A DNA stretch of 62,849 nt, the filler included, from Asterionella formosa (lineage: Eukaryota), in the NCBI GenBank assembly GCA_002256025.1. It is 14 parts of 14 records of this genome, joined end to end, with 100 filler letters (N's around TTAATTAATTAA, not from the genome) between each part and the next. Parts side by side here need not be neighbours in the genome. Positions count along the whole stretch, not along the records: positions 1 to 22,513 come from NKIB01002706.1; 13 more parts are not named here. One strand, 5' to 3'. The translations under genes were made by a program, and so were the position numbers. Below are positions 6,013 through 58,030 of the stretch, one piece after another. Position 1 is the stretch's first letter; each line of letters begins with the position of its first letter. The notes beneath the pieces were generated by a model. The model was given only the letters and a program-made list of their open reading frames with translations. It was not told where the DNA came from and did no database searches.

Positions 6013-6445
6013 ATACAGTGTAGAGATTTGGTAGCAAGAGAGGTCTGATTTGATTGCGCGGCTGTTACTGTACATCGCCCTCCATGGTGAGATGGGGTGC
6101 TTACCAGTGCTAGTAGGATTGCTGTGATAGTACTAGTTTAGTTTCTTGTAGCTAGTAAATAGCTGCTTACTACGGAGTACAGAGTAGGTAAAAAAATATA
6201 TGCCGATAGCCAAGGTCAAGAAAGAATACATTTATTCGCAGTTGTTATTGTCTACCGTAGCTATACTTCATTGTCCTGAACCCCCCTGTACATTTTTTTC
6301 GAGGTGGCACCAAACACCCAATAATTTTCTAGACATAGACAAAGTAACGTGCTATAATTCTGATTTTTGTGGCGAAAATTGAATGAAGCTACCATTATAA
6401 ACTACCAGTAATATCGGTACTAACAATGCATACTACATATTAATC

Positions 6446-6859
6446 ATGTCAACAACAAGATCAGCAGCAATCAACAGCCGCCGAGATGGGGAGTTGCTTG
6501 GACTGAATGCTTCCAGCAATGGGCGCTCATGTGAGCAACATGAATGCTGCGGGAAAGCGGTTAAGGCTGATGATGTGATCAGGTTCAAGCTGGCCGTTGT
6601 GGAGGATGCATTGGTGGGCAAGCCATAGGTGAAGATCAAGGCTGTCCTCATCAAGGACGGCATGGAACTTTGCACTGTTGGGTTTCTGGGCAGAGAAATT
6701 GCAGCATTGCCTTCACAACGGAGCAAGTACATCGACAAGTTTGCGCAGGTTCTAGAACTATATGATGACAATGAAGATTCTATGATGAGAAAGAAGAGCA
6801 AGAGGAAGGCCGGAGTGGCTTCATTCCGCTTGATGGAGGATATTCAAGGCCAGGAGTAG
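6446..6859 (+). pseudogene. Passenger ORF of the pogo element, HIRAN-like fold with a C-x2-H-x2-C insert; one in-frame TAG at 6626-6628
   Basis: ORFs 6446-6628 and 6629-6859 are one frame: ELLGLNASSNGRSCEQHECCG..V...DVIRF...KIKAVLIKDG..CTVGFLGREIA, resembling the HIRAN pattern (VvG ... AI.V....G..VGYLPR..A). Confidence 0.55.
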
Positions 6860-7151
6860 ATTCGATTGTAGCAGTCCTCAATAACGAAATAGAAATGCAT
6901 TCTATACTATTTGTTATAATATTGTAGAACAGAAAATAGAATCTAGAGTCATTTCCTTTAGCATTTATAGTGATTCACATCAACTGTAGTTCTACTAGCT
7001 TCAACACGAAAAATCGAATCATAAAGCTGTTTAACATTAACGCTATGGAATTGCTTCTACAAATCAATAATATTACAATAGAGCATGCTTAAACAGACTA
7101 TAAAGTTATATTTCTAGTCACATGCTACACTTTTTGAATAAAATAGAGTCA

Positions 7152-8386
7152 TCAATCGCTTGCAATGTAACCAACCGCATTCCAAATGTTCAAAATTGTT
7201 GATTGTGACACCCTCAGCCAAGCTGTCCAAACCCACTGAGCGACATCCTGCCGCTTCACCTTTGTACCATGAGGATGGGCGACAATCCAGTCCTCATAGG
7301 CATTCCTAACAAAAGCCTTAAAGGGCTTGTTTACTCCAACGTCCAAAACTTAAGTTTTGATGTGTAGCCACGACCACAAATGAAGTCCACAGCAGTGCCA
7401 CAATCCTTAATTGCATTGAGGCTCGTCGCCATCAAATGCACCTGGAACTCATCCATCAGGAGGTAGCTTGGTTGAGAATCATGGCTGATTGTCCATGGTT
7501 TCCAGACTTCCCGAATCCAAAGCGCAAACACCGACTCATTGACCCACGCCTTCGCCTGACAACAATAAACCATCTGTGGGGGATCAGCAAACTGTTGATT
7601 GTTAAATTCTCGCTGGATCCTGGCATCAGGTGCTCCTTTGAAAACAACAAGAGGAGCAAGCTTCTCTCCAGACATGGTAACACCCAACAACACTGTGCAA
7701 CGCATGCTGCTGCCATTTGGTGCATAAACTGATGGTTTTCGCACCTTCATCAGCTAGCGTGAGCCCGCCTCCTGCCATATCGAAATAACGGTAAATGTTT
7801 GTCTCATCTATATTTACAATGCTAGCACGATGATACGACCCTTCAAGAAACTGTGCGTGCATATACTGGAGATACTCTTGCATGACAGTCAGTACATAGC
7901 GCGTGTTTTGTGCCTTGTGGGTGATACGACGATACACAATGTTTTGGGATGTGCACCGACGAGCTACACGCTGTTGAATAACGCTCAAGCTAGTACTAAC
8001 AACATGTCCCGCCAAGCGCTTCAGCTCAGCAGCAAGCAACATGATCGAACAAGCGCGATCATCACCACGAAGCTGATCATACAAGAGACAAATCGCAGCA
8101 AATTCAGTTGCACTATTGCTACGTGACTTGCCTAAATGAAAAGTTTGTTTTTTCAGTTGGAGACGCCCCTCATCCAACAATAAACCTTCTACATCAGAAT
8201 AGACTAACGATTGTCGAAATCATGAGAGTTAGCTTTCCAGTGCTGAATATTGCTGGCGCCGATGCCATACTTATGTTCAACAGCCTTGATGATGCTGGGG
8301 AGTTCCCATGCTTCATCCACGATGACGTGCTTTTCTTGCAAGGTGAAGAACTTTCTCATTTTTCACTTTTCGGAAACAGCGATCAT
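7152..8386 (-). pseudogene. pogo/CENP-B-like DDE_1 transposase, frameshifted
   Basis: N-terminal HTH (RKFFTLQEK...KYGIGASNIQHWK), NIDET, RCTVLL..TMSGEKLAPLVVFKG, QAKAWVNE, LLMDEF..H, GYTSKL..DVGVNKPFK, split over several frames with a TGA near the start. Confidence 0.9.
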
Positions 8387-8559
8387 ATTAATAAATATTA
8401 GAAAATTGCGCGCCATCCTGTAGAACTAATAAAATTAACTTAGGACTAGTATAAGGGAAATCTCTTCATTGTCCTGGACCCCCCTTAAGTAATATCAGTC
8501 AAATTCAGTCACGGCAGTGTACATTGGGGGGTCCAGGACAAAGAAGTATACGGTATGTG

Positions 8560-9060
8560 CTAAACTACCGGTTCAAAAATTGAAATACCGTAGAATTTAG
8601 GTATATAAACCGTTACCGGTATTTATGTCGATTACTGTGCCGGTAGTAACATTCCTACGTATGTAGGGTTCTCATCAAGGAGTACTTACTACCGGTACAA
8701 GCCTCATGGTACCAGGTACCCTTGTACCATCAGTACCAGCACGGTCCCTGAGATGTAGAGTACCTGGTACTGTAAATGAACTTACCAGCATATCATCTTA
8801 CCTGGTATCGTGATCATGTTGTCACCGGTACATGATTTCGATACAATCCAACTGCAGTACATATTGTACATCAAATATCAGTACAGACTAGAAAAGGCTA
8901 CCGGGTACGAGTTCCTGGTACGGAGTATGGAGTAACGGCACCTGGTATCAGGCACCAGGGATACTAACTATAGACCGGTATGTGTGGTAGACCAAGCACT
9001 GGTACTGGTACCAAGTACCAGGGTTACCGTACACAGTACCTGGTACGGTACACCATATGG
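8560..9060. repeat. Dispersed TA-(C..G)-TA module cluster next to the right pogo end
   Basis: Numerous taccggta, taccaggta, tacctggta, tactggta, tacggta units. Confidence 0.7.
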
Positions 9061-9351: not shown

Positions 9352-11488
9352 ATGTTTCAACGATCCAAGCCAGAAAAGGTGAGAGCCAGTTGAGCTTTGA
9401 TCCAGGCCAGGGGGCAAGGGGCGAGCGACTCGGACATGACGATATAAACCCAACGCAAGACGATCCCATCATGCAGTATTTCTCACCATATGCTCTTTAA
9501 CTCTGGAAACTAATATGTTTGTAGACTTCCCGAACACCGAAAACGTCGACGAATCCGTCAAATCCTGCAGCTGAGGCTACTGTCGCCGCAAGCCCTACCC
9601 AGCACTTATCCGTCCGATCCGATGATGAAACCGTCATAACAGACAACACGCCAGAGTATCTACTCAACAAACCGACGGATAATGTCTATCTAAAAACCAT
9701 TGCTGACCTGCAACTCGAAGTCAAGCAAACCAAGGCCGAGGTGACAACGGAAAAGGCTGCCAAACGGAAGCTATATTCATCACTGGTGAAATTGGCCACG
9801 GAGCTCAAGCGCATCCGAGCCGAACATGTGCCCTTGCTAGATGCGGCGGAATTTGCAAATCAATCCTGGTACAAGGGGGGAATGTGGCGTGCACCGAAAG
9901 TCTTGCCGGGGCTTAACCAGAGGGCAGCTGGGGCTAATCAAAAGCACGTCTTACAAAAGGCCATTGGATTGTCGGAACTATTCTTTGATTTGGTCGTTGT
10001 GACAGCCTTTACTAGGGTCGGTACCGCCATTGCGACCAACAGCACAGTAAACCTTAGAGACCTCTTGTACTTTGCCATTTTTTGGATGATTTGGACCAAG
10101 GAAACGAATTACTCCACAAGATTTGATGTCACAGACCTGTCGGTGCAAATTGTCACCCTGCTCACGTGCTTTGCGACCTTGTTTGCATCGCTCAGTACCA
10201 ATTCGGAAATCAATTCAGTGGATGGTACACGCATCATGATGGCTGCTGCCTTTGTCGCGATCTTGCACTGCATGTTGCATATCCGAGTCGCATGTTGGTA
10301 CAAGGGAGCGGTCTTTGGATCTGTGAATGATCACGTGCAGAGATACGCCATTTTTACTGTCATTATGACATTTTTGGAAACAGTGACATGGACTGTTGGC
10401 ATCTTTTTCTTGCCAGAGGACTACCCATATCGGTGGGCCATTTTATTGACAGGTATTGCCTTTTCGATTCGGTTGCCTAGGGCATTCTTGTCGAATGATT
10501 TTCATGGTATGTGCCTTTTTAAAAAAAAAGCTAGTCAATGCACTTATGTCCAATCATGGAAATGTTCTCACAAATGATTGATTCCTACATTACTCCAGCT
10601 GCCTGTTCCAAACGTGGTGTCCTCTTCATCCTATTACTTGGCTTCTTGTTGCAATCGGTTGTTATTGTCGGAAGTCCGTTTTTTGAATACCAAACACCAT
10701 CCTTGGAACAGTATGGTTTCTTGGGATCTTGTTGTTTGATGCTTTTTTGCATCAAACTTTTGTATGTGGACGACAACACTGGAGCACTTGGAAATGATCA
10801 TGCTCTCCTTGTCAATCGATATGCTGGGCTCTTTTTTAACATTGGTCAACTTACATTGCTTCTAGCAACGACTGTCTTGGGGGCAGGCTTGGACCTTATG
10901 ACACATTCATATTTGGCTGCCACGCAGGCCTTGTCAGACAATGCCAAGATTTTGGTATGTGGAGGCTTCTCATCGGTGGTTCTGAGTATTGCTTTTATCA
11001 AGTCCATGCATCTGCGTCGCTTCCCTGTGGCAGGGAAAGCACGGGCCCTGTTTGTGGCAGCATACTTGACACAGCTGATCACCACTCTTTTGGTGGTAAC
11101 CATTACGGCTATTATGTGTTTGCGCGAGTCCTACATTATGGCCCTGACTCAAGATGAGAGAATTATGATGTTCGTGTTGGCAGGTATGGCGGCCTTCTTA
11201 GTGGTTATGAGTTGGTTGGATGAAGCAGTGGAACTATCATTGTACAAGGGTGCCGATGATGCTAGTCAATACTTGGTTAACCCGTTTGGCTTGTGGTGGT
11301 GTTTGAAACCAGAACTAAACGAAGTCGAGACTTTGGCAGCAGCAGCAGAACCAGGGGATCGAAGACTCTCAGCATTATCACCCTTGCTTGGTGCATCCAT
11401 GGCGGATTTCAAATTGAGTGTCCGAAATTTTGGATATGATTCAATATCGGAAGATATGGATGCCATGCAGAAAGGAGAGTCTGTGTAA
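9352..11488 (+). CDS. LtrA (low-temperature requirement A)-family multi-pass membrane protein; exons 9352-9378, 9525-10506, 10599-11488
   Basis: LSELFFDLVVV LtrA motif, YSTRFD, many TM helices. GT-AG introns 9379-9524 (branch ctaat) and 10507-10598 join the ORFs in frame (..NDFH-AACSKRG..). The first exon is less certain. Confidence 0.8.
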
Positions 11489-13056: not shown

Positions 13057-16000
13057 CTAAGCTTTTTGTCGTCGGAATCTGTCACCCAAGGCTCGAAAAT
13101 TTCTTGACTTGGTGCTCTGCACGGAAGCATCTGGTGATGCCGGCCCAGCATTACTCGAGCCTACAGATAGACCATTGCCAGATGCGCGACCACGGCTCTT
13201 CTTGGTAGACACCCCATTGAGCCTGTTCTCAACATCACCAGGACTATTGCTCGAAGATTGAGTCACTTCAGGTGGATGAACAGATGACTTCGTCACTCCA
13301 TGATTTTTGGAATCCCCGAACGATGACGATCCAGCTTGCCTGTTATTGGTTGAACTACTAGTCGTGTCCTGTCGAGATGTGGCCGGTCGTGAGCTACTGA
13401 TTTCTTTGCTGCTCCTGACCGACCCTGCATCACTTTGATTTCCCTTGTCCAGAGAGCCCCCCGTGAAAAATGGATGCTCCAAGACGTCTCGCATTGATCG
13501 AACTCGTTGTGAAGGATCAGGATGAAGAAGCTTTCCCAAAAGATCTCTGGTTATGTCGTTTTCAACATGTTTTAGAGCTTTGTGAAGGCTATTTTCGTCC
13601 CAAAGGCCGATTTTGCCAACCTCAATCATGCTCATCGCTCGCTTTCCACGACATGCGTATGGGCCAAGAGGCAATCCTGCGTTGGCTTCATAGACAACAA
13701 CACCATAGGCCCAGATGTCGTATGTTGTTTGAGCTGGTATCGAGACAACGCAGGCAGAGACATGTTTCTTGCCGATGGCCAACCGCTTGTTTTCGACGAC
13801 AATGGACTCGGGAGGATGGTAGAAGCCTCGGTTGGGATCTGTTGGGTCGCCAATTGGGGTGCTTCCTCCAACTCCGAGCAACTTCCACCGGTTTCCAAAC
13901 TTTCCTATGTTGTGCGTTCCAAAGTCGCCATGCACGATACCGTGCTCGTGCATGTGAAGCAAAGAAATTCCGATGCGCTTCAAACTCTTTGGAGGGAAAA
14001 CGGTCCCTTTCTTTCTCATGTCAAGCATGAGGTTTTCAGCAGTTGTGTCGGCACCTTCCATTGTCACACAGTAGCCAGGCTCGGCCATGGCCTCGCTGTA
14101 AGCTGCATGCTGCACAGTATGATGTACAGATATAATAGCCGGGACATAGTGACGAGACAAGTGATAATCCTTCCTTATTTTCAGTTCCCGTTCGACAATG
14201 TCAGCTCTTGAAGTAAGTTTGGCAATCACTTGCTGCCCTTTCTCTTTGCGAATCTTACGAAGCTTGTCTTCAATACTTTGTTGAGATCTGCTCGTCAAAG
14301 TCGAACGCATGCTGTTTCTGGACATAGATGAGACTTGAGAAGCGTCATCCCAGTCCTCTAGATAATCATTGTCGCCTCCGTCGTTCTTGTCTTCGTGTAG
14401 AAGGGTAAACTGTCCGTTGCTTTCCTTTGGGGGTTCATAGCGGAGAGCGTAAAAAATCTGCGTATCGCTTACAGGGTTGGTGTAGGCCGGCCGCTGGTTC
14501 ACAACTTCTAACGTATTGAACAATCGTAGCATGACACGGATTTCATGCTTGCACACAGGAGTGGCAGCAGCCAATGCGATCTTTCCATCGGGGCCTTCAA
14601 CGTGTGCCAAAGCCAGAACTTGTGGCTGTGTGCAAGTTTGGAGAACTTTTGTAACAACCTGATGGTATAAATCATCGGTATTTGACACAACATGGTTCCA
14701 GGAATAATGGTGCGGGAGTAGCTGAGCACGAACCTTCTCCTTCAAATCGATTGGCATATCTCGTTTCAACAGGTTGTGAACGATAAAGTGAGAGTGTTCA
14801 TTCTCCGTGGCAACCTGAATCGGCAAGAGTCCAGTCTTACGATCGACAGCAGTGGCAAGCTCGGGCGCGTGATTCAAAAGCCCCATGATAGTACGGTCGT
14901 CTGCACTATGCTGAAAAGCTAAAAAGAGGGCGCTGTGCCCGTCCCCGTTCAAAACACCTGCAGCCTCAGGGAACTGCATGAGAATGGTGTTGATGACAGC
15001 TGTTCTACATTGGTGTTTCAGGGCAATTGCAAGCGGAGAGTCACCGTGCATGTCGGTTCTAGAGACAGCATTCGCAAAACAAGTCAAAAGAGTTTTGACA
15101 ACAACTTGGTCAACAACCTCTCCGCATCGTAATAACAAGTGCAGCGGAAGATCACCATTTTCATCGGTTCGTTTAGCAGAAGAAAAATTCTCGGCTAAGA
15201 GAGCAGTGATGACACCAATCGACGCATAGTTGCGACAGGCTATGTGGAGTGGCAAACCCCCACCATCATTATTGGGAGGGCGATACACCATGGTGTATGC
15301 GCCCTCCGGAGCCTTGGAAAGCAAGAATTTCACAGTGTCGACGGCGTCAAATTCTGCAGCCACGTGGATAGGGAGGCGACCCTTTTTATCTGTATCGTTG
15401 ATTCCTTCCTTATAGGCGCTATAAATTATCTCCAACGCTGCAAGATTATCGTGGGCGGCAGCATGGTGGATTGGGAGAGCTCCCATCTGGTCACGATGAA
15501 TGAGTGCTTTTGGATACAACACGAGAACCATATCAATAAGGAGTGTCCATGCACCAGTGTGCCTAGCAATCATATGCAATGGAAGTTCTCCACTCTTGAC
15601 ATCCACAGCTTCGGCAAGCTCGGGATGTCGGTCTAAGATGTGTTCCACCATCGACCAGTTCTCTTCTTGAATCTGTCGGTATAATTCTGTCTGAGTATCG
15701 CCATTTAATGCGAGTTCGGTAGTGGCGACAGGAACAACTGCAAGAGAAGCCCTCTGTTGGACAGGTGAAGGAGAGTGTGCAGGAGCTTGCCTGGGAGGAG
15801 GCGACGGTGTTGGTGCCTCGCTGGTTGCAGCTGCCAGTAATGCCATGCGTGTCAGTGCACCACGGTGCATAGCCTGCAAAACAATCACACTTCGAATTAC
15901 TTGCTCTTCTGAAATAGTGGGCTCCTTCTGGATATGAGAAGTTTTGTACATAGAGGTTCGAAAGAAGCGCTGAATAGCTGTAGCAGCTGCCTTTCTGTAC

Positions 16001-19000
16001 ATTAGAATCTCGAGAACAATCGCCTGCGCAGAATGCATTCTCCATGTTTTCTGGATAATAGTGGCAGCACTCTGAGATCTCATTCTGATGACACGCCTAT
16101 TACTCAGCTTCATGCGGAAAGCAGACTGGATGGTGACAGCTGCCAATCGCACGGCAATGAAATACTGACGACAGCGCTTTCCCCGAATAATTTTCTGAAT
16201 TGAGGCAGCCGAGCTGAAGAATTTTTCAGATCGCATGGCTTCGATGCGGTCAAATGCTTCCCGGCGGAGAAAAACCTTGTTCCGGCCCAGCTGCAAACCA
16301 GCAACTGCACAACGTGCAGCAAAATCAAGCGCTTTAAATTCTTCCTCTGTTTCTGGTCGAGCAATCCCGATTGATACCTTTTCTTTTGTAGAAAAAATGT
16401 TGCGACTATTCTTTCCTTTCTGTTTCTCTTCAGGTGTCATAACTGAACTTTCGACAACCATATTAAAAGGAGGCACATATGGAGCAGCATCCCCAATATT
16501 GATTTTAGGGCCAGCATCGCGCTTACGTGGAATGTCACGTTGCTGGAACTTCTTTGGCAAAGCGGCAGAAAAACGTCGATTGTTTTCCGCTTCAAGCATC
16601 GACTTCATGATCTCGATATCTGTCCTCCAAAGACCAAGAGCGATTTTTGAAATGAGACGCTTCAAATCGGATTCACGGTCAGTTTGACGATCTGGTGTGA
16701 ATGCAGGAGAAACAGGTGATACATCTTTCCTGTCGCCAAGGATATAATATCTTGCCATGAAGACTTCATGGGGGTATCTGGTAGGATAACCTGCGCGACT
16801 GACACGGACAGCCTCGAGAACACCGCCACACCTCAGTTGTTCCACAACGTTTTTAGGCTCGAAGTAGTCTGGAATTAGGTCATCGTTGGGTTTCAGACAA
16901 CGAATGTAGTGAGGGACAGTTGTTTCTATTCGAGCTCTTAGCAACCGTAGCTGAGTTGAAAACTGAGCACCCACAGATTTGGTATTAACCGTACCCCGCC
17001 CGCCACGATCCTCCGAGCGAACAAACATATGAATTTCTCCAATAAGAGGAAAATCCGAAGAGGTTAGAAGCGCTGCTGAAGCAGCAGGAAGCTGGTCCTT
17101 GTTCTTTTCCAACCAGGCATCGGTCGTGTACTCAACGTATCCAGCATAGTGCTCAATACTGAACTTGTAGTCAACACGTTGAGCAGATGTTGCATTGAAT
17201 CGGGGATGCTTGTCACACCGGGCATACAAATATCGAGTAAACTTTTGATCGGTACTCTTTGGGAGGATACACTGTTCATCCAAAAGGGAAAGGATACCAG
17301 TGTGTTTCATGTCTATCAAATCAAGAACATCTTGATTATCAGGGAACGAAATAAACTTCCACAAAATGCCTTCCCTCTCATATTCCTGTTGTTCCAATTT
17401 GAATACATATTTGTTGAACTGTTGTTGAAGTGCTTCGTTAGTATAATTGATGCATATCTGTTCAAAGTTGTTAATGTTGAATGTTTCGAAACCAAAAATA
17501 TCAAGGACTCCAATGGATGCTGCAGAGCTTCCGTGACTTGTGGTGTCTTCGACAATGCTAGCATTGACTTTTTCCACGATGAAATCGAAAGCAGCACCAT
17601 AAACAGCCTTGATAAGGGCTTCGCATGCCTTGGTAGATTCTTCCTTGTGGAGTGGCTTATTGACAATCTCCAGACCAGCATAGATAACACGCTCAGTAAG
17701 TGAGGAAGCTAGTCCTTCAAAGGAGACTCCCAATAACGCGGCAGCCTTAAGGGCAGCTTCTGTCTCGTCAAGACGACAGGATTCGCCGTCAGCGGACGGA
17801 GTAAAAGTCATATTTCCAGCAAAAAGGACTGCTGTGACCAGACGCATTAAGGACATAATGGTCTCTGGAGAGAAGCCTATTGTATTCTGTAATCAGAAGC
17901 AGGAGGAGTTAGCGAATAAATTTGAGCGAATGGAAGGAAATAAAAGAAAATCAGACTTACCATTGCATCAAGCATCTCGTGATGGTTCATTTCGTCGCTC
18001 ACTCCGTCGCGGCGATCGAATGTTCCACTCTCGCACAACAGGCGAAAATCGCCATAATGCATTTTATCTATGTAGAAGTCTTCGCGTTCCTTTGTTGTGG
18101 CACTGCTCAAAAATTGGTAAAAGATGTGATAGTTTCGTTCTCCTGCAGATGGACGAATCAAGCGAACCTTTTCCAATAAATAAGTTTCAATAGAAGCACC
18201 CGACAATTTTCCAGTCGTGGTGAATCTTATATCAATGTACTTCCCGAAACGAGAGGAGTTGTCGTTACGAATAGTTCGAGCATTACCAAATGATTCGAGA
18301 ATTGGATTGCTCTGCAGCACTTGCTGCTCAATGCTGACAGTCTCGGAAACAGGTGACTTCTGAGGGGTCTTCATAGGGGTACTCCTTTGATCGGCATCTG
18401 CGCGCTTCTTGGAAAGCATAGCCAAATAGTTCAAAACGATCTTGGTGGTTACAGTCTTCCCAGCTCCCGATTCTCCGGAAACAAGAATGCTTTGGTTCGT
18501 TGGTGTGCCGAACTGCATTGTTTGAATCATGGATTCTCCTCTACGCAGTTCTCGCCTGGGAGTCCCCATCAAAGCCTTGTTCTCTAATCCACGCATCATG
18601 GCACGATAAGCGTCGTCGGACGTTTGATATACATGCGGTGGAAGTCGTTTATTCGTGGTGGTATTCTTTTGCTGGCTGCGCTTGAAAGGTGTACTGAAAT
18701 TATCGTCTGCCTTGCTCGCAGAACTAAGACCTTGTTCACCTTGAGACCGGTAGAGCTCCATAGTATTTTCTGAATAGAGTTCCATTGATTTGAAAGGGTT
18801 AATTGCAATGAGAATGGGACCTGTAGCAGTGTAGATAATGTTTGCATCATATCGGAGACGAAGTGCGTGCAAAATAGCTGGTTCGTGCAAGTGCGTCAAT
18901 CCGATGAGATCATTAACACCACCGACCACTTGTTCGTCCAGCTTCGTGGAAGGACTGGTGATCACGCCAGCTTCTGGGTCCTCTCCCGATAGCTGATATG

Positions 19001-19292
19001 AAGTAGGAAGGTTTCGCAGCTTGATATCGGCATGGTCGGCAGTCTTGAGTTGCTCAGGATCTACAGTAACAATGACTTCGAATTTTTCGGCATTTGCAAA
19101 GTAGTTGGAACTATCAGTGTTACGCCGACGCTGAAATTCCTTGGAAACCTCAATACTAGAATCGTCTCTCAGCGTCAAATTGATCATTTTTACGTGTTGT
19201 ACCACAACTTCATTCTTGTGTGTAATGATGGCAGGAACCCAGCCCCAATGGGACTTGTCCCGTCGGAGCCAAACGTGCGCTCCCAATTCCAT
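13057..19292 (-). CDS. Unconventional myosin (2053 aa): motor, about 5 IQ, ankyrin repeats, C-terminal kinase-like domain; exons 19292-17961 and 17886-13057
   Basis: P-loop GESGAGKT, LESFGNARTIRNDNSSRFGKY, DIFGFE, YIRCLKPN, IQ motifs, many GxLPLHxA ankyrin units, kinase-like HGDFGTHN...DIWAYG...HPFF. 74-nt GT-AG intron 17960-17887, phase 0. Confidence 0.95.
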
Positions 19293-20029
19293 TGTTAAAC
19301 AAGGCTACCGGTAGAGCAATTGCTTTATTTGAAGCAGTTGATTTGCCTTCTTTGCAAGGAAATAATCTGCAAAGAACGGAGTGTTTGTTCCTGTATGTTG
19401 ATACACAATTGTAAGTGAAACGAAATATTTGAAAAAAAGGATCGTTGCAATGTACCGGTATGCAGATGATAGACCGTTGGAGATGCACACAGGCCGATGT
19501 TTCGGAACACTTCAAACACGGTTATATATATTTACGACGTTCAAACCATGGTTTGGCCGCTATCCGGGTGGTCCCCAAATCTAGCCCCAAAATTTCTAGC
19601 AAATAGAAATAGAGCTGGCGGTATAGGCAGTAGAGTGTGCCAGTAGCTACCCCGGTACTTGTCAAGCGGGTATCGTTCTAAGACATGTCTGGTGGGTACC
19701 TGATACCAGGTACCAGGTACCAGTAACAGCAAGTTGCGGTCATTTAATCTGGGATAAAGATAGCTAAACCTTTAGTTCAGCAAAATTAGCGCAACTTGCA
19801 CAGGCACATACCAATACTACATATTACATCTGCACAAGAAAAGTAACAAAAATGCGTCAGTCTAGACATGAATTCGAAAAAGTGCCATCCACTCTCAAAA
19901 AAATTTTGATAGCAACTGCCAAAGAAAGAACAACACATTTGTTGACACCGATACCTGGCTGCATCCACCATCACAAAAATTGCCGGTAGCTACAATCAAT
20001 CAATTCTCATTCATTGAATAACTATTTTC

Positions 20030-20230
20030 GTCTGCAAATAAAAAGTATCATGCATAGTATAGGATCAAGGGTATCGTACGCTAGTAAGTGGCACAGGATT
20101 TCATATAAATGATAATTTTTGGATCAAAACTGTGATCAAGGTGTCCTGTAACTATGATGATTTATTAATTTTTTACCTAACTTGAAGTATAATGATAAGA
20201 AGAACATTATCATTTCTCATCAATATCATA
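20030..20230 (+). repeat. Dispersed repeat, homologous to 49115-49280 on another contig
   Basis: gtctg.aaataaaaa.tatcatg...gatcaagggtatcgtacgcta[gta]agtggcacaggattt..cata.a.atgata.tttt..gatcaaaa...tgatcaa shared by both loci. Confidence 0.8.
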
Positions 20231-20855: not shown

Positions 20856-20913
20856 GTTGACCCAAACCAAAACCCAAAAACTTATTTTTGGATTGGTTTT
20901 GGTTTTGGTCAAC
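20856..20913. repeat. Imperfect palindrome, possibly TE subterminal
   Basis: gttgacccaaaccaaaacc..caaaaa / tttttgga..ggttttggttttggtcaac; TAGGG at 20810 may mark an element end. Confidence 0.55.
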
Positions 20914-21126: not shown

Positions 21127-21215
21127 CACACTTCTTCATGATGAAATACAACTGATTCAATTCTGTCTGGGTTGCTGAAACTGCTGTCAGTTGTATTTCA
21201 TCATGAAGAAGTGTG
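21127..21215. repeat. Perfect 29-bp inverted repeat with 31-nt loop
   Basis: cacacttcttcatgatgaaatacaactga (21127-21155) and its exact reverse complement (21187-21215). Confidence 0.95.
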
Positions 21216-22513: not shown

Positions 22514-22613
22514 NNNNNNNNNNNNNNNNNNNNNNNNNNNNNNNNNNNNNNNNNNNNTTAATTAATTAANNNNNNNNNNNNNNNNNNNNNNNNNNNNNNN
22601 NNNNNNNNNNNNN
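22514..22613. other. Artificial contig linker (N44-TTAATTAATTAA-N44); same linker at 45093, 46564, 48046, 49527, 51007, 52488, 53969, 55450, 56930, 58410, 59890, 61370
   Basis: Identical 100-nt spacer carrying a six-frame stop cassette. Confidence 0.99.
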
Positions 22614-42975: not shown

Positions 42976-45372
42976 CCAGAAACTCAAGGAATAGATCAAT
43001 TGGACCAATGGATGGAGGGGATTGTAAATTCACAAACGACAATTCCATAGAGAGAAATAGAAAAAAGTACTTTTCTATATAAACATATATAGAGATACAC
43101 CAACCGATATACCATACTCGACCATTACAAAATGGTTGGATGTACACTAGTAAGTTGTAATAGTATTCCAATGGCAGTTCACCAACTATCCTTTGGCAAT
43201 CAATTTGGGTACAAATGTTTCATTTGTAATGGACCATCCACAAAATTTGCATACCATCAGTATGAGAATTGAATGAATTGAACTCTTATTAAATATATAT
43301 ATAAATCAGAATGATAATCGGAATACCAAAAATCGGTATTTACCATACAGTGACTACCAGGTGAGCAATCCTGCATATCAATACAGATGTATATCAGAAC
43401 TCAATAATAAAAGAACTTGACTACCACCTGCTATTGTATACTTTGGTGTCGACTTAGAGAATGAGTTGCACACAAGGATTAAAGAATAAGCTCATATATT
43501 CAACAAATAATAATACTTCTAATTAGATACTTCACTTTGAATTCAAAAAGAGTCCAATTAGAATTAATAATCATGTTGATGTACTGTCTTCTCAAGTTCC
43601 AGCCATTGGTCCTATTGATGATGGATAACAACATACTAAACATCAAGATTCAGACCTTGTTTTGTATCCCTACCAGGTCTATGTTTGGAGTCTTTCTATT
43701 GAAGATATGATCAATGAACACTCAGTGGAAGCTTGTTGATTGACTTCAGTAAATCCTGTGATATGGCTAACAAATGTACCTATAGTCCAGCAGATTCCTT
43801 GCTTGTTCTCCTACTGCTACAAAAGATGGCTCACAAATATTGCTTTGTCTGCTGACTGGATGAGCATTACAATAATCCCAGATGCTCACCAGGCCCAAGA
43901 CAGTCTCAACAACGTCATGGTGATGTGTCTGGAAGATTCTCTTATTCATGATATCTCTGAGAATCAGCATCAGTGGATGCCACGATAATACTCAATAAAA
44001 CATTTCAACATGTTGGTGATCGACTTCGCTGCCTATCTCAAGACCTAAAATAAGCTCCTCAAACTCCTGATGCTTCATCCAGGCGATCAGGAAGTCTTGG
44101 CCAAGGACGATTTGAGGTTAATTTTCATTTATTTTATGCCCAATGTGTGGAAGCAAGGCTTGAATGGAAATATGAAAAGAACACAAATCAAGAGAACACG
44201 CGTGCCTTGTATCAATTTTCAAACATAAAATCGTCTATAAATAGTTAAAGCTGACGACAATCCTGTGATGCATCAAGAAAACAAGCGTGACTAGCTAGTG
44301 TCAATTTTTTAAAGATCGTTTTTGCATTGCTGAATGCAGTCATGTGATGCATCAAGAAAACAGCCATGTCAAGCGTCAATTTGTACACGATAATGATACA
44401 CTAAGTGGTAATGGTACTAGGGCACATGCATTTTAATGTATCCCCCCCCCCTGTTACTCTGGCGTGAAAATTCTACGCAGAGCGAATTATCATCATACTG
44501 ACACAGCTAACCCTGTTCATGTTTGCTTTTTGTGTGCATGTTTTCTACAAATGCATTGGTTAACCCTATCATGATGTCTGGTTAGGGTACTGTGCCGAGG
44601 GCCATACCTGCCGACTTTTATGAATCTGCCCAGGAAATTGTAGTGTTCATGAACCCTCCTTTTGGTCAGCTGGTCGCCTTTATGCCTAAAATCCAGCAGA
44701 ATGCTGAACAGATCGCCTTAACAGAAGTATGTGCGACAATAGCAATGCTATTTTTATAATACATATATATATATTTATAATGGCAAATTAAATATGTCGT
44801 ATGTCAGTCATGACCTGGATAACATTTGTTATTTACATGATAATTACAGGCTGGATATCGCCGCTATTGTAACGCGGGATATTTTAAAATGCATAGGTGG
44901 CTTCAACATATCATCCCATACATCTCTCAAGGCCTGACTCCAGTCTCATTTCTTTCTTTGCCTAACATCTAAGCCGCGTATTACGTGAAGTGACCATCAC
45001 GTAAATAAGCCTAGTTGATTTTGAATGGATCACATGAATTAGTTGAATACATCAAAATGCTTACTTGAATATATCTATATATTATCTGAATANNNNNNNN
45101 NNNNNNNNNNNNNNNNNNNNNNNNNNNNNNNNNNNNTTAATTAATTAANNNNNNNNNNNNNNNNNNNNNNNNNNNNNNNNNNNNNNNNNNNNTGTGTAGA
45201 CAGTGGCATCAACAGGTATTGTGCAAAGGTAATTTCTTTGTTACAACATATTGATCAAAATATTCAATTTACCAGGTGTTTACAATTGAGTCTTTGTTTA
45301 ACAATTAATAGCATTCAAAGTGTAGTTCAGAGTGCATCTACATGATATGATACTAAAAATAAGTATATCTAT

Positions 45373-49070: not shown

Positions 49071-49114
49071 TTTGCAAGTTGCAGTCGCTCCCTCTTGGCA
49101 TGTGATGGGCGGAC

Positions 49115-49280
49115 GTCTGTAAATAAAAAATATCATGAAAATATGATCAAGGGTATCGTACGCTAAGTGGCACAGGATTTTCACATATATGATAGTTTTT
49201 CGATCAAAAATATGATCAATGTATCATATTATTATGATCATGCAGTAAACTTTTACTGAGCTTGAAGTATGATGAGACTA
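49115..49280 (+). repeat. Dispersed repeat, homologous to 20030-20230
   Basis: See 20030; weaker similarity continues downstream. Confidence 0.8.
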
Positions 49281-50029
49281 TCATAGTTATAATACCATTG
49301 CATCATATAATTAGTTAAACATGGTCATATGATGTGTATACTTTTGTCATTCATTTATTTTAGCATGATCGTCATTCTCATCGATATCACTGTCTAAAAT
49401 AGGATGAAATTGATCGATATTTAGAACTATATTTAGCTAAGAATGGTTCTATGATTCTATCATATCTTAAGTGGCTACAGAATGTTCTACAATGCTCTCA
49501 TCGCAATGATTGTTAGTGCTGCTTTCNNNNNNNNNNNNNNNNNNNNNNNNNNNNNNNNNNNNNNNNNNNNTTAATTAATTAANNNNNNNNNNNNNNNNNN
49601 NNNNNNNNNNNNNNNNNNNNNNNNNNGTTTTTATACCGGTATGTTTTTTACTGTGTAGGAGCACAAGTCTATAATGTCGTTGTTTGTACATAAAGAAGAT
49701 CGCGTTACGTATCGATTCATTCATTACTTACTAACTACAAAATCACAATTATCATGCCTTCATTCACATAATATATGCATGTGGCCATCACATGCATTTA
49801 GCGGTACCTGGTACCTGGTACCAGGTACCATGTTTTAGTCCGTGGTTTGGCTGGTATTGAGATACGACCGAGTACCGGTAGGGAGTGATATATATATGCG
49901 AGGGTGTACAGTGACACCCAGGAGTACTACCGGTACCTGGTACCTGATACTCCCTCTGTCTAGTAACAGTTGCATCGATAATTCAAATTTATCCGGGGCC
50001 ATTTTGACTCCTACGATTTTCTCCGGCTC

Positions 50030-51006
50030 AATTGCCCTAGTTGTTAAGTTTCTTTTAAGAACAGCCCATTTTGTCTGTAACAAACCAAATGCCATCTCTT
50101 TCCTAATCCGTAGCTGGGAAAGAAAGAAATTATAGGCATCTTGTGTTTGGTCATCACGCTAAGAACCAACAAATGGAACTAACATGACATCTGACAATGT
50201 ATATGCTGCATCACCAACAAGATAGAAACCAGAATCAAATAATGCAGTTTTGTTGGGTAGAGCAGTTCTCTTAAATGCAACTTGATCACTGCATCATCCA
50301 GGAGCAATCACCCCAAAAAATATAAATCTACTCTCAACATCACAGATAGCCTGAACATTGATACCATAGCTAAGTCATGTAATGTCCAGAATAAAAAGCT
50401 CCTGGATTGTTTCCACAGTCACGTAGCGTGGGGCGACTAATTGTGGCTAAAAACCATCAATAGCACCAACACACCCTCTGATCAACCCTTCTGTGCTCTT
50501 TTGTTCAAAGGCCATAGCCAGTTTCACCCAATCACTCCTTGTTTTAGGAAATATAGTTTTCAGATAATCACAGTTAAGCACAACTTCAAGAAATAAATCT
50601 CGGCATCTATAGATTGAAGCTATGCTACATTCATAGGCATAACAAATGTCAATGTAGCTGCCTCCAGCCAGCCATCGAATGCCAATGGCCAGCACAATTT
50701 CTGGGTAAATGGGAGTAGCTGTACCGCACTTGGAGAAATTCCCAATGACATCACTCTCCAGCAAGTAAACCAACTTCTTAAAGGCTCGAAGGGACATTCT
50801 ATAAGTCTTTTCAAAAGCGTCCTCATGACACAGCTTCTTGACATGAGAATGCCATGACATTCTCTCATGCTCCCATTTCGCCTTCCTCTTTTTAACTTTT
50901 GTTTCAGCCTCCAGAGCCAGATGACAAAGGATAAAGAATTGATCATGGTCATCATAATCAAAGAATTGATGATTGCTTTCATTATCAAAAAATTGATTAC
51001 TGATGA
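50030..51006 (-). mobile_element. Degraded PIF/Harbinger (DDE_Tnp_4) transposase
   Basis: FEKTYRMS, LAIGIRWLAGGSY, GCVGAIDG, FYSGHY.TYGINVQAICD, YLVGDAAY, YNFFLSQLRI..EMAFGLLQTKW. Confidence 0.9.
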
Positions 51007-54068: not shown

Positions 54069-55449
54069 CCGAAATTGAAGGAACAACGAGGAAGGTCTCG
54101 GTCACTCTGGTGAAGGAAGAGTTTAGATATTTTGTTGAACAACTGGTCAAACAGTTTTCGATTGGAATTACCCTTTACTGTTTTGGGACGCCCGATCATA
54201 TAAGAATATAGCTCCATGAGGTGATCCATTATTCCTTCTTGAATGGAATGGAGTTTTTCAGGAGGAACGTGCCCATTAACACCAAGAGGATCGCCACCAA
54301 AACACAACTGATACCAAAAGGGATAGATGAATCTTTGGCTCACATTATCCAATAAATCTTTTATGCCCCGGATTAATAGTTCCTCGTAATCAATCTGACC
54401 TACAGGACTGCATTCATGAGATGGATTGTCCGTTTGATCAAACGGACAATCACATTCACGACACATTCTGGCAGTCTTTAGATATGTTTTCTTTCGTCCG
54501 CATTGTCCATCTAAACCTTCAGCATCACCGAGAATTAGACCAACCGGAACTTTCACATTAAGTGTAAATTGATTGCCTCCGAAATTGAAAATGTGTTTGA
54601 ATCCACCAGCTTGTTGGACATTCTTGACCCCCTCAAGAATCACACCAAGGACAGCGTGATAATCGGATTCCTTTTGATCAGGGGTTAGGGACTGGATTTC
54701 AGATAGACTTGATGAGGTCAGCTTTGGGATCAATCCGATTGGCCGCCATGCATTGACCTTATTTCTCACATTGGTAGTAAAAATACCAAGTGACATTAGG
54801 ACAGGCTCCATTGTGTACTTTCCTTTTTCAACCGTGTGTGTCTTGTCAATAAAGAACATGAGTGGAACAAGGAAGTCATTTGGCTGAGAACATAAATATT
54901 CATGGGCATCTATCCACCAGGTACCAGTGTGAAATTCGGATCTGACACTGGTGGGTTGCGGTGCTTTACACGGATTGACGAAATCAAATGACACATTTTG
55001 TGGTGACATTAGTATGTCATTTGTCAAGAGATTCTTAACCTGAGCCATGAAATCAAAACATACAACATCAATCAGTTTTCCATCATGCAATATGGCCTGT
55101 TTCACCTGGGGAGTTAAATCATTCATGTTAAATCGGTTTTGAAATTCTTTCAGAACAGTGGTCCTCCTGGGAGGACAAGATTCAAAAATGAATCCAGCTT
55201 CCTGAGCTGTGCTGCAGAAACTCATGATTTGATCATACATATAAAGAGGAGAACGGGTGCCAAGCAAAAGACTAAGCAGTCGAGACTTCATAACATCGCC
55301 AACTGAGAATGGTATACCAGGATCGGCGGAGGAAAACCTAATCCCTGTGGTGCTCAGGACTGGAATAGTATTGGTTTCATCCTGTACCACTATTTCGCTT
55401 GTATTTTCTTCATCTTCTTTTTGATCAATGTCATATATATTGGTATGAT
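54069..55449 (-). mobile_element. Plavaka-like (CACTA-related) transposase, open frame, truncated by contig ends
   Basis: SEFHTGTWW, VPLMFFIDKTH, EPVLMSLGIF..RN..AWRPIGLIP, YHAVL..IL, LGDAEG.D..CG, CRECDCP, EKLHSIQEG. Confidence 0.75.
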
Positions 55450-57139
55450 NNNNNNNNNNNNNNNNNNNNNNNNNNNNNNNNNNNNNNNNNNNNTTAATTA
55501 ATTAANNNNNNNNNNNNNNNNNNNNNNNNNNNNNNNNNNNNNNNNNNNNCAGGTTGTTCCAGTTCTTAAGTAGTAGTTAGCCATCAACCTTTCAATATGC
55601 CGAAGGATTTCATTCAATATTTTTTCAATCAGACTCCACCATCATACCACTACATGTCTATTCTTTCCATGTTCATCGCCATACTTTATTGCACAAGTCA
55701 ACACTGGCCATCACAAGTAATCTCCATCACATATAAAATAATATCCTTTACATCCAATGCTAGATGAATCCTCAGAGAACACATGCTATTCTTCCCTGCC
55801 CAGAAAATAATACCTATAATTTAAATTGGAAACGCAAGAGTCATATGATCGAATTTGACTGTGTGTTTGTAATTTCTTGCTCTTGGGTGTAGGTAACAGA
55901 TGGTCTAAATCTTTCTTATCTGATCGAAAATCGCCTCAAAAAACTAATGGATACCGCCCCTTTTGAACACCAGTTGTTGCTAGTGAAGTATAGAGGACAC
56001 CAAGTAAGAGCAAGTGGAGGTCGGTGTAGAGAAGATTGGTGCAATCTTTCAATGATGGATCATAGTACTACTATCCATTTTGAGATTCTTGCCATGCACG
56101 TCATAGAGCACTCTGAATATGCTATCATGTGGAACACGAAAAACCTTCCAAAAAAGCTTGTCATGCATGTGGTAATGTCCAATTGTAATTGGTTCTTTTC
56201 CGTTGTGAGGCAGGAGCTTCTTTCACCATCATGAGTCTTGCTTTGAAAATTGAGGTTGTTCATTTCTCCCTACTTTATTTTGATTTTGTCATTGGGTGGT
56301 GAAGATCATCAAATTGAATCTTCTTGTTGCATCTTTGTACTCAATAATATCCTGACAATGAATGCCAGTATGCACTGTAATACTAAAATAGAGACCACAT
56401 ATAAAGTATACGGTAATGATGCATCAAAAGGAACTGTATACTACCGGTATACTACACTCCAGATCATCAGGTAGCTGATGGCAGGTACCTGATGGTAGTG
56501 CCAGGTAGTATTACCTATACCTGGTATAGTAATGAAAGAGATATACTGGTATATACCAGTATTTCATGCATTCCGTTATACGTATTAACTAGCTCATCTC
56601 TCGCTCTCCTACCTACTATACAAGCAGGCTGGAACGCGCACAAAACAACGTATTTCGTTTCTTGTGTTGCTTTTCTTGGAAGTTTGCCCCGGCATCACCC
56701 AACGTCGACTCCTGATTTGACTCTTTTCGTTTGCTCCATTGTCGAAAGAAGAATTGGAAGCGACGTGAGATTCCAATCAACAGAGCCTCAAGTTCAGAAG
56801 CGCAGACAAACAATAAACACTACCCACTTCGAACATGACGTTGTCACAAGAACGAACTACAATTTGTGAATCCTCGCCATTCGTTGGAACATGTGCTATT
56901 CAGCACCTTCGTTGGATACAGATGATACTNNNNNNNNNNNNNNNNNNNNNNNNNNNNNNNNNNNNNNNNNNNNTTAATTAATTAANNNNNNNNNNNNNNN
57001 NNNNNNNNNNNNNNNNNNNNNNNNNNNNNAGTGAGTGTTGTTGGCGGAGTGGTAATTAATACTTCGATGTACCCGTACAAAGTCACCGAGATTGCTGTCA
57101 ATGTTGTTGCCGTGGATTTTATAGACGCATCTGTATCTA

Positions 57140-58030
57140 CTTAAAATGTACGGGTGAGTACCAGGTAGTCGACCAGTACCGGGGAACTTGGTACCACTGG
57201 TAAACCTCTATTCTTCAGTAAGGCTTGGTTAGGTTGCTGGTATACCGGTACCTTGCATGTTGCGGTAATTGTGCTGAAGCTCAATAACCTCAACTTGCTC
57301 TGGTACCTGGTAGGTGGACCGGGTACCAGGTACCTGGTACCAGGTGAGTAGGTACAAGGTATCGGACGAGTTGGAATCAAAGCTGGCGGCTCCTGAGCAT
57401 CAGGCACAGTACCCTGGTACCAGGTACCAGGTACCGGTACCCCGTCTAATACCCTGGTACCAGTGGTACCGGTATATTCTATGTAGCTACCGGTACATGT
57501 CCGGCTGTGGTGTGACCAGAGCAATTTTGATGAATATAAATAGTTCTTCGGCCCTTCCAATGATTACTTTGCGTTTTAATAGTTATAAGTGTAATTATCT
57601 GCAGCTTGTAAGTCTACTTAAAATGTACTATCTACTTTCTCAATTTATGCTTGTCCCCTTTTTAGTTATGAATTAGTGGCGTTGAAAGCAGCACCAGCAA
57701 AGACTAGTAGTATAGTGCCGGTATTCATATCACAGAAAGTATGCCTGTAGAAACTGGAGGATCAGCCAGAGCTGCATTCTTAGGCTGTGAAATCTACGTT
57801 GACTACCGTACCGGTACCGTTAGGTTCATAAAATCACCTGGTCGTGGGCTGATGGAGTGATGGCACATAGGAACTCTATCTACGAGGTACCAGGTACCAG
57901 GTACCTGGTACTGGGAGTACATGGTACCAGCGCCGGTACTGGCACCTGGTTCCAAACATGTAGAATGATGTACATTTTACCAGTCAGAACCACAATGAGT
58001 CCAGGGTACCTGTTTCCAGGTACCAGTAAC
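57140..58030. repeat. Densest array of TA-CCWGG / TA-CCGG modules
   Basis: For example ggtaccaggtacctggtaccaggt (57322), tacctggtaccaggtaccaggtaccggtacc-like run (57410-57442), ggtaccaggtaccaggtacctggtactg (57886). Confidence 0.9.

Follow-up and report, generated by a model that had tools for sequence, protein, structure and literature searches.

We analysed a 62,849-nucleotide stretch of the Asterionella formosa assembly GCA_002256025.1 (hereafter, the window), which contains a decayed pogo-type DNA transposon at positions 6255–8553 and other repeated elements that carry short insertions, each consisting of a TA dinucleotide repeated around a filler of a few bases. A sequence-only reading of the window had described four of these insertions, at 6258–6263, 7786–7793, 20082–20086 and 50367–50372, as resembling the footprints of elements that insert at TA and are later excised. 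The window is a chain of contigs (1–22513, 22614–45092 and then twelve pieces of about 1.37 kb), so these four sites lie on three different contigs. The linkers, at 22514–22613, at 45093–45192 and at eleven further places up to 61469, consist of 44 N, TTAATTAATTAA and 44 N, in which TTAATTAATTAA is a six-frame stop linker that raises the counts of TAATTAATTA words. Long open frames in the window correspond to a Slu7 splicing factor, a myosin with ankyrin and kinase domains, a fructose-1,6-bisphosphatase and an ion channel, and 31-mers of the window are present in an ‘algae metagenome’ run and in many freshwater metagenomes.

The elements that we compared were those flagged by the sequence-only reading. 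A second copy of the pogo element (L001) served as one comparator; the contig that carries it also encodes P0001, which, like P0002, is an intact transposase relative. Contigs from four public runs belonging to four studies (X1, X3, X6 and X8) were compared with the window, using the best-supported 12 of 98 indel rows. Summed depth in these contigs does not equal copy number, and contig counts were therefore used. Comparison of the window with itself gave only 8 repeat pairs, and the repeats within it hold few indels.

A pogo element and six insertions at TA

The element at 6255–8553 is, by its sequence features, a pogo-type DNA transposon with TA duplications and the ends CCGT...ACGG. It is bounded by TA on the left (6253–6254) and on the right (8554–8555). 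Its left terminal inverted repeat (6255–6286, + strand) reads CCGTA, then a 4-bp insertion (GCTA), then TACTTCATTGTCCTGAACCCCCC, and its right terminal inverted repeat (8526–8553, − strand) ends in GTATACGG. With the 4-bp insertion set aside, the repeats are 28 bp long, start with CCGTATACTTC and agree at 26 of 28 positions, as read from the alignment. L001 aligns to the element almost end to end. Three independent ends (left and right in the window, and that of L001) share TA followed by CCGTATACTTC and diverge directly outside it, which places the start of the element at CCGT and its finish at ACGG.

A decayed transposase occupies 7152–8362 (− strand) in four reading-frame pieces and matches PF03184 (DDE_1), a domain also carried by P0001, above the cut-off (E = 1.2e-12); an N-terminal match to the CENP-B-type helix-turn-helix PF04218 is weak (E = 0.04) and, at 14 bits, does not reach the cut-off of 21.2 bits. 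P0001, the single close relative from the protein search, is 394 amino acids long, uninterrupted and 90% identical over 162 aligned residues. The family is multi-copy, with many distinct contigs in the four runs matching the element. A pogo relative from another metagenome (L006, 40% identical) has the ends TA-CCAT...ATGG-TA, which indicates that CC...GG ends recur in the pogo clade. The pogo repeat pattern was found at 0 loci in genome_contigs, and the two matches in viral_contigs were unrelated and attributable to chance.

The right end of the element (8455–8553) contains, about 40 bp from its terminal inverted repeat, a further, inward copy of that repeat, and L001 shares this arrangement; the final 90 bp or so therefore have the layout of a hairpin-like miniature element. 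Breaks at 8450 and at 6361 are common among the contigs, a pattern suggestive of short family derivatives. Opposite in strand to the transposase runs a second open frame (6401–6859, + strand) that is conserved in L001; the copy in the window is interrupted by a stop at 6626–6628, has a 3-bp tandem insertion and gives no significant Pfam match. At 6403–6410, within this frame, TACCAGTA of the window corresponds in L001 to its reverse complement, the two differing by a pair of neighbouring mismatches. We gave no weight to reading this difference as an inversion or as the paired strands of a single mismatched repair joint, because three other adjacent double mismatches occur in the same alignment.

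The four insertions described by the sequence-only reading are real, and shorter forms of each were found. At 6258–6263, in the left inverted repeat, the window has TAGCTA (TA-GC-TA, +4 bp), where the right repeat of the window and the same end of L001 read CCGTATAC; this site falls outside the best 12 indel rows of the run contigs. The transposase carries TA-ACGG-TA at 7786–7793 (+6 bp; TAACGGTA, or NIDETNIYRYFDM on the minus strand, that is, TA-CCGT-TA), which is in frame and adds the residues RY to a segment that reads NIDETNIYFDM in the intact P0001. The 6 bp are missing from L001 and from 8 contigs of X1, 1 of X6, 1 of X8 and 0 of X3, and a TAA duplication around CGG (TAA-CGG-TAA) is an equally good reading of the site. 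As the sequence-only reading had pointed out, the minus-strand filler CCGT equals the first four bases of the pogo end. In a dispersed repeat, 20082–20086 reads TAGTA (TA-G-TA, +3 bp); the copy within 49114–49275 reads CGCTAA at 49161–49166, and 64, 17, 11 and 12 contigs in the four runs, with 75–96% of summed depth, also lack the 3 bp. The fourth insertion, TAGCTA at 50367–50372 (TA-GC-TA, +4 bp), shifts the frame of a Harbinger transposase remnant, for which P0002 reads GHYMTYGINVQAICD at the site and FYSGHYMTYGINVQAICD across it.

Two further insertions of the same form emerged from the comparison. TAGACTA at 8200–8206 (TA-GAC-TA, +5 bp) is a frameshift in the pogo transposase; its 5 bp are missing from L001 and from 29 contigs of X1, 2 of X3, 1 of X6 and 1 of X8. 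In X3 only these two contigs, with 78.6 of 702.5 summed depth, are without the 5 bp, so that this insertion, at least, predates a later spread of the copy that bears it; some of the insertions are common to several copies of an element. TAGTA at 20055–20059 (TA-G-TA, +3 bp) lies in a multi-copy dispersed repeat, and its 3 bp are missing from 71, 9, 15 and 11 contigs (36–86% of depth) and from the copy at 49114–49275. All six insertions thus have the form of a TA (or TAA) duplication with filler. The polarity of each comes from one or more independent copies or intact relatives, and, judged by these comparisons, the longer allele is derived at all six sites; L001, P0001, P0002 and the contigs all speak against its being the ancestral state.

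The preference for TA that the sequence-only reading had proposed is borne out among the insertions that could be polarised. We considered the indels of at least 3 bp in which the window is longer, a set of 11 events (seven in the pogo element, three in the repeats near 20 kb and one in the Harbinger copy), and 6 of the 11 are TA-filler-TA. Among simulated random insertions of 3–6 bp, 1.2% have this form and about 14% show any duplication of at least 2 nucleotides around a filler. A binomial calculated by hand from the 1.2% rate gives about 1e-9 for 6 of 11, and about 0.003 for the 2 of 7 that are left when the four sites picked by the sequence-only reading are set aside. Differences of other kinds between the window and L001 are a 3-bp tandem gain at 7768, a 3-bp gain at 7370 (AC-G-AC), a 3-bp tandem gain near 6615, a 1-bp gain in an A run at 7716, a 1-bp loss at 7351 and an 11-bp loss near 7025; L001 itself has a duplication beside its own repeat. 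The run contigs independently back the differences at 7351, 7370, 7716, 7768, 7786 and 8200 and also yield those at 20055, 20082 and 20913 (CTG-G-CTG) and three 1-bp changes.

Over-represented words bounded by TA

The forms taken by these insertions recur far beyond the compared elements. A census of the window showed that its most over-represented 6- to 9-mers all belong to one word family, that expected when TA+CC is joined to GG+TA. TACCGGTA occurs 32 times against an expectation of 0.29 from dinucleotide-preserving shuffles (0 of 100 shuffles reach 32), and TACCWGGTA occurs 38 times against 0.24. Shorter or partial versions are enriched by smaller factors: TACCGTA and TACGGTA together number 19 (3.1 expected), TACCAGTA and TACTGGTA 17 (1.5 expected), and TAGTA and TACTA 183 (94.6 expected). 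TAGCTA, the form seen at two of the insertions, occurs 21 times (9.7 expected). The single-base fillers A and T behave differently, with TAATA at 80 (76 expected) and TATTA at 71 (78 expected). The bias is oriented relative to the dinucleotide: CC follows TA 302 times and GG 113 times, and GG precedes TA 319 times and CC 125 times.

The 70 TACC(W)GGTA sites in about 62 kb have unrelated flanks and occur on most contigs, and none of the 70 falls within the Pfam-supported frames, which cover 16,777 bp (27% of the window). The right flank of the pogo element (8556–9060) is dense in TACCGGTA, TACCWGGTA, TACCGTA and TACGGTA, and the densest patch of such words is at 57130–57500, including the array TACCAGGTACCAGGTACCGGTA at 57418–57439. 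Some sites form arrays with a 7-bp period in which A and T are mixed at the centre of the unit; the central base of adjacent units is the same 5 times and different 8 times, which is unlike simple slippage.

Probable excision footprints and competing origins

We consider the TA-filler-TA insertions probably to be excision footprints of TA-targeting elements of the Tc1/mariner/pogo type, a known process that would here have left marks at unusual density. An element would insert at TA and duplicate it; on excision, its transposase would leave short 3′ overhangs consisting of bases from the ends of the element; and host end-joining would seal the break, keeping both TAs with 0–4 or so bases between them. 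For the pogo ends, three-base overhangs CCG and CGG (in top-strand sense) joined through their self-complementary CG would give TACCGGTA, as would abutting two-base overhangs. Keeping four bases of one end would give TACCGTTA or TAACGGTA, as at 7786–7793; keeping three would give TACCGTA or TACGGTA; and keeping one would give TACTA or TAGTA, as at 20055 and 20082. TACCWGGTA could arise through one extra A on either overhang, or from a second family with the ends CCAG...CTGG through C:G, A:A and G:C pairing. Sleeping Beauty excision overhangs pair in this way. We infer the presence of an element at these sites and its departure from them, the length of the overhangs and the origin of the central A or T of CCWGG.

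Because each scar would add a new TA, successive hits could build up TA-CCWGG-TA-CCWGG-TA arrays that repeat every 7 bp. This leads to a wider proposal, to which we give somewhat less than an even chance: that excision at TA has been so frequent that its scar words (TACCGGTA, TACCWGGTA and the shorter forms) have become the commonest non-random intergenic words, at about one per kilobase, that TAs hit again build the 7-bp arrays, that the process is the main mutagen for small insertions as well as a source of microsatellite-like DNA, and that the words form a countable record of past excisions. For the TACC(W)GGTA sites, a footprint origin is suggested by their form, their match to the resident ends, the graded enrichment of shorter words and the insertion at 7786.

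Several observations weigh against an origin by excision. Half of the fillers (GC at 6258 and at 50367, and GAC at 8200) cannot be built from CC...GG ends taken in left-then-right order, and the CCGT end of pogo does not by itself explain the central A or T of CCWGG. No element-filled allele was found at the six insertion sites among the joints (15 of 157) and loose ends (24 of 2416) listed, and none of the TACC(W)GGTA sites showed a filled allele or one with a plain TA. The compared copies also contain non-TA duplications around filler (AC-G-AC at 7370 and CTG-G-CTG at 20913), plain tandem duplications (7768 and near 6615) and, at 7994–7999, a 6-bp insertion of TACTAA after CTAG that is not a simple TA duplication. 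The 11 events come from elements that the sequence-only reading had pre-selected, and for two of them, at 7994 and near 6615, the polarity comes from L001 alone. TACCWGG-type arrays also occur in bacterial contigs, from genomes without transposons of this kind, so arrays alone prove nothing: a two-unit array pattern has at least 103 loci in genome_contigs, mostly short arrays in GC-rich contigs of bacterial metagenome-assembled genomes, where about 70 would be expected by chance in 596 Gb (hand arithmetic, with uniform base composition). None of the 7 loci inspected contained the pogo repeat, and the matches included no algal DNA.

The claim that elements insert and leave divides. The derived state of the longer alleles, the bias towards TA, the resident multi-copy pogo family and the excess of words all favour it, and the filled allele that it leads one to look for was not seen. 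The fillers divide similarly with respect to the ends of resident families: ACGG at 7786 and G at 20055 and 20082 fit the CCGT/ACGG ends of pogo, G being the last base of the end, and GC, GC and GAC do not. These other fillers could come from a TA-bounded family whose ends are G(W)C, or be untemplated; two scans of the window for inverted-repeat pairs found no TA-bounded element with G...C ends. We also tried reading the insertions as the product of Harbinger elements, which would target TWA, and rejected it: 4 of the 6 are at TAA, about 0.4 being expected by chance for TAA/TTA, which is not significant. The insertion at 7994–7999 could itself be two nested one-base scars (TA-G-TA-C-TA) with one substitution. 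The window reads CTAGTACTAACAAC at 7990–8003 and L001 reads CTAGCAAC; words such as TAGTACTA occur 25 times in the window against 2.3 expected.

A source for the CCWGG words may exist in the window. A 53-bp palindromic element at 57251–57303, CCTTGCATGTTGCGG...CAACTTGCTCTGG, has TA on both sides and is a weak candidate for a second TA-CC..GG-TA family; the consensus end of this candidate is CCAGCAAGTTGCGG, and a related end lies at 19718–19745 beside an array. A consensus of loose ends at 19777, drawn from 83 X1 contigs, ends in ...GCAACTTGCTGG. A family with CCAG ends may thus be resident, a weak suggestion drawn from these sequences, and a further point against excision as the source is that the candidate consists of two degenerate copies in the window and one loose-end consensus. 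The two inverted-repeat scans, which could have revealed a second TA-bounded family, gave only pogo and the motif arrays, and the open reading frames in 19.5–22.4 kb contain no transposase domain.

The alternative that survives best, though we think it unlikely, is that TACCGGTA and TACCWGGTA constitute a highly iterated palindrome, or a short satellite, that arose independently, the likeness to pogo ends being coincidental; the six insertions could still be footprints. Such a palindrome could be a binding or regulatory site, or could stem from biased repair or from slippage or template switching in a quasi-palindromic heptamer. The location of all 70 sites between genes fits a regulatory motif too, the heptamer arrays of bacterial contigs show that comparable words arise elsewhere, none of the TACCGGTA sites showed up as a 6-bp insertion when compared with another copy, and a very frequent 8-bp palindrome of unsettled origin, HIP1, is known in cyanobacteria (PMC4390886; here and below, the cited sources are drawn on in excerpt). 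This alternative stays live because no filled or plain-TA allele was seen at the TACC(W)GGTA sites. Against it, the edges of the word are the TA that the resident element duplicates and the inner CC and GG are the bases of its ends; the shorter words with CCG/CGG and C/G are enriched in graded fashion and the single A and T fillers are not; the insertion at 7786, a proven 6-bp insertion, is one base away from TACCGGTA; and the mixture of A and T in adjacent units is unlike slippage.

That the insertions are ordinary ones, made by slippage or templated end-joining in decaying repeats, with TA at their edges by chance or through AT-rich context, seems improbable. The same copies do hold tandem 3-bp duplications, 1-bp homopolymer changes and non-TA duplications around filler, and duplications around filler are not rare in simulation. 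The share of insertions at TA nevertheless far exceeds the simulated rate, TA is rarer in the window than expected (0.75 of expectation), and none of the six fillers is copied from adjoining bases, as read from their contexts. The least probable of the alternatives is a TA-specific break without a full cycle of insertion and excision (for example, abortive strand transfer, off-target cleavage by the pogo transposase or another TA-specific nuclease), closed with added bases: it accounts for the TA specificity and for the fillers GC and GAC that match no resident end, and the transposase is plausibly abundant given its many copies, but a simple break at TA duplicates no TA, the duplication pointing instead to staggered integration followed by removal, and the filler at 7786 consists of element end bases.

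Known systems and neighbouring features

Excision footprints are themselves known; what is added here is two further events, the excess of words and the nesting arrays. Elements of the Tc1/mariner group integrate at TA and duplicate it (PMC2874221), DNA transposons in general leave an excision break with short 3′ overhangs of element end bases (PMC4423477), and the pogo element Passer leaves footprints of 0–4 bp (PMC9976928). The insertions in the window resemble those of Tc1 in C. elegans, Sleeping Beauty and Passer in the TA target, the retention of both TAs, the few bases between them (in the known systems 0–4 or so, from the element ends) and the proposed repair by end-joining (PMC2874221, PMC9976928). 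They differ in being seen only as relics embedded in other copies of transposons, where no donor allele was seen, and half of the fillers differ from the only resident family with established ends.

A second comparison is with rice, in which DNA-transposon excisions were likewise detected by comparing genomes: Roffler and Wicker (2015) reported genome-wide excision fillers of 1–123 bp, with perfect footprints in 8 of 94 cases (PMC4423477). In the excerpts of that study, rice scars are mostly deletions of the flanks with foreign filler, whereas those described here are short, keep both TAs and fall into one dominant word class. The cyanobacterial HIP1 (GCGATCGC) is similar in being an 8-bp palindrome far above chance, genome-wide in its case (PMC4390886). 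It differs in belonging to another domain of life and, as far as the excerpts of that source go, in having no link to transposon ends or target duplications, whereas the word in the window is bounded by TA. In our literature searches, no paper described a canonical scar word that occurs about once per kilobase and nests into short arrays, and a search on TACCGGTA turned up nothing related in topic, judged from the hits as listed.

Excision footprints have usually been studied locus by locus or in transgenic assays. If the excess of words does consist of footprints, the history of excision becomes countable from genome sequence, a DNA transposon family would be seen to shape small-indel spectra and to seed short tandem arrays, and there would be an explanation for frameshifts in nearby transposons and potentially also in genes. 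The footprint reading also predicts the cleavage stagger and the repair products of an uncharacterised algal pogo transposase.

The Harbinger copy that carries the insertion at 50367 lies on a 1.38-kb contig. It is 96% identical to P0002, an intact protein of 491 amino acids that carries PF13359 (DDE_Tnp_4); the piece in the window alone matches this family below the cut-off (E = 0.011). Just upstream of the insertion the copy has lost one base in a T run, and it contains two in-frame stops. Its match to P0002 ends after LKRNLTT, at about 50040. Two TACC(W)GG arrays lie in the 250 bp beyond this point (49805–49945, next to the truncation), and the loss of the rest of the copy may be connected with the process behind these arrays.

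Elsewhere in the window, 21127–21215 is a perfect 29-bp inverted repeat with a 31-bp loop in the multi-copy region at 19.5–22.5 kb, and one X1 contig joins its arms on opposite strands. The LtrA-like gene (9525–11488, + strand) and the myosin gene (13057–19304, − strand) each consist of two overlapping frames, for which a frameshift or a short intron could account. One of the short contigs is taken up by part of a Plavaka-type transposase (PF18759, E = 1.7e-14; 54071–55447, − strand).

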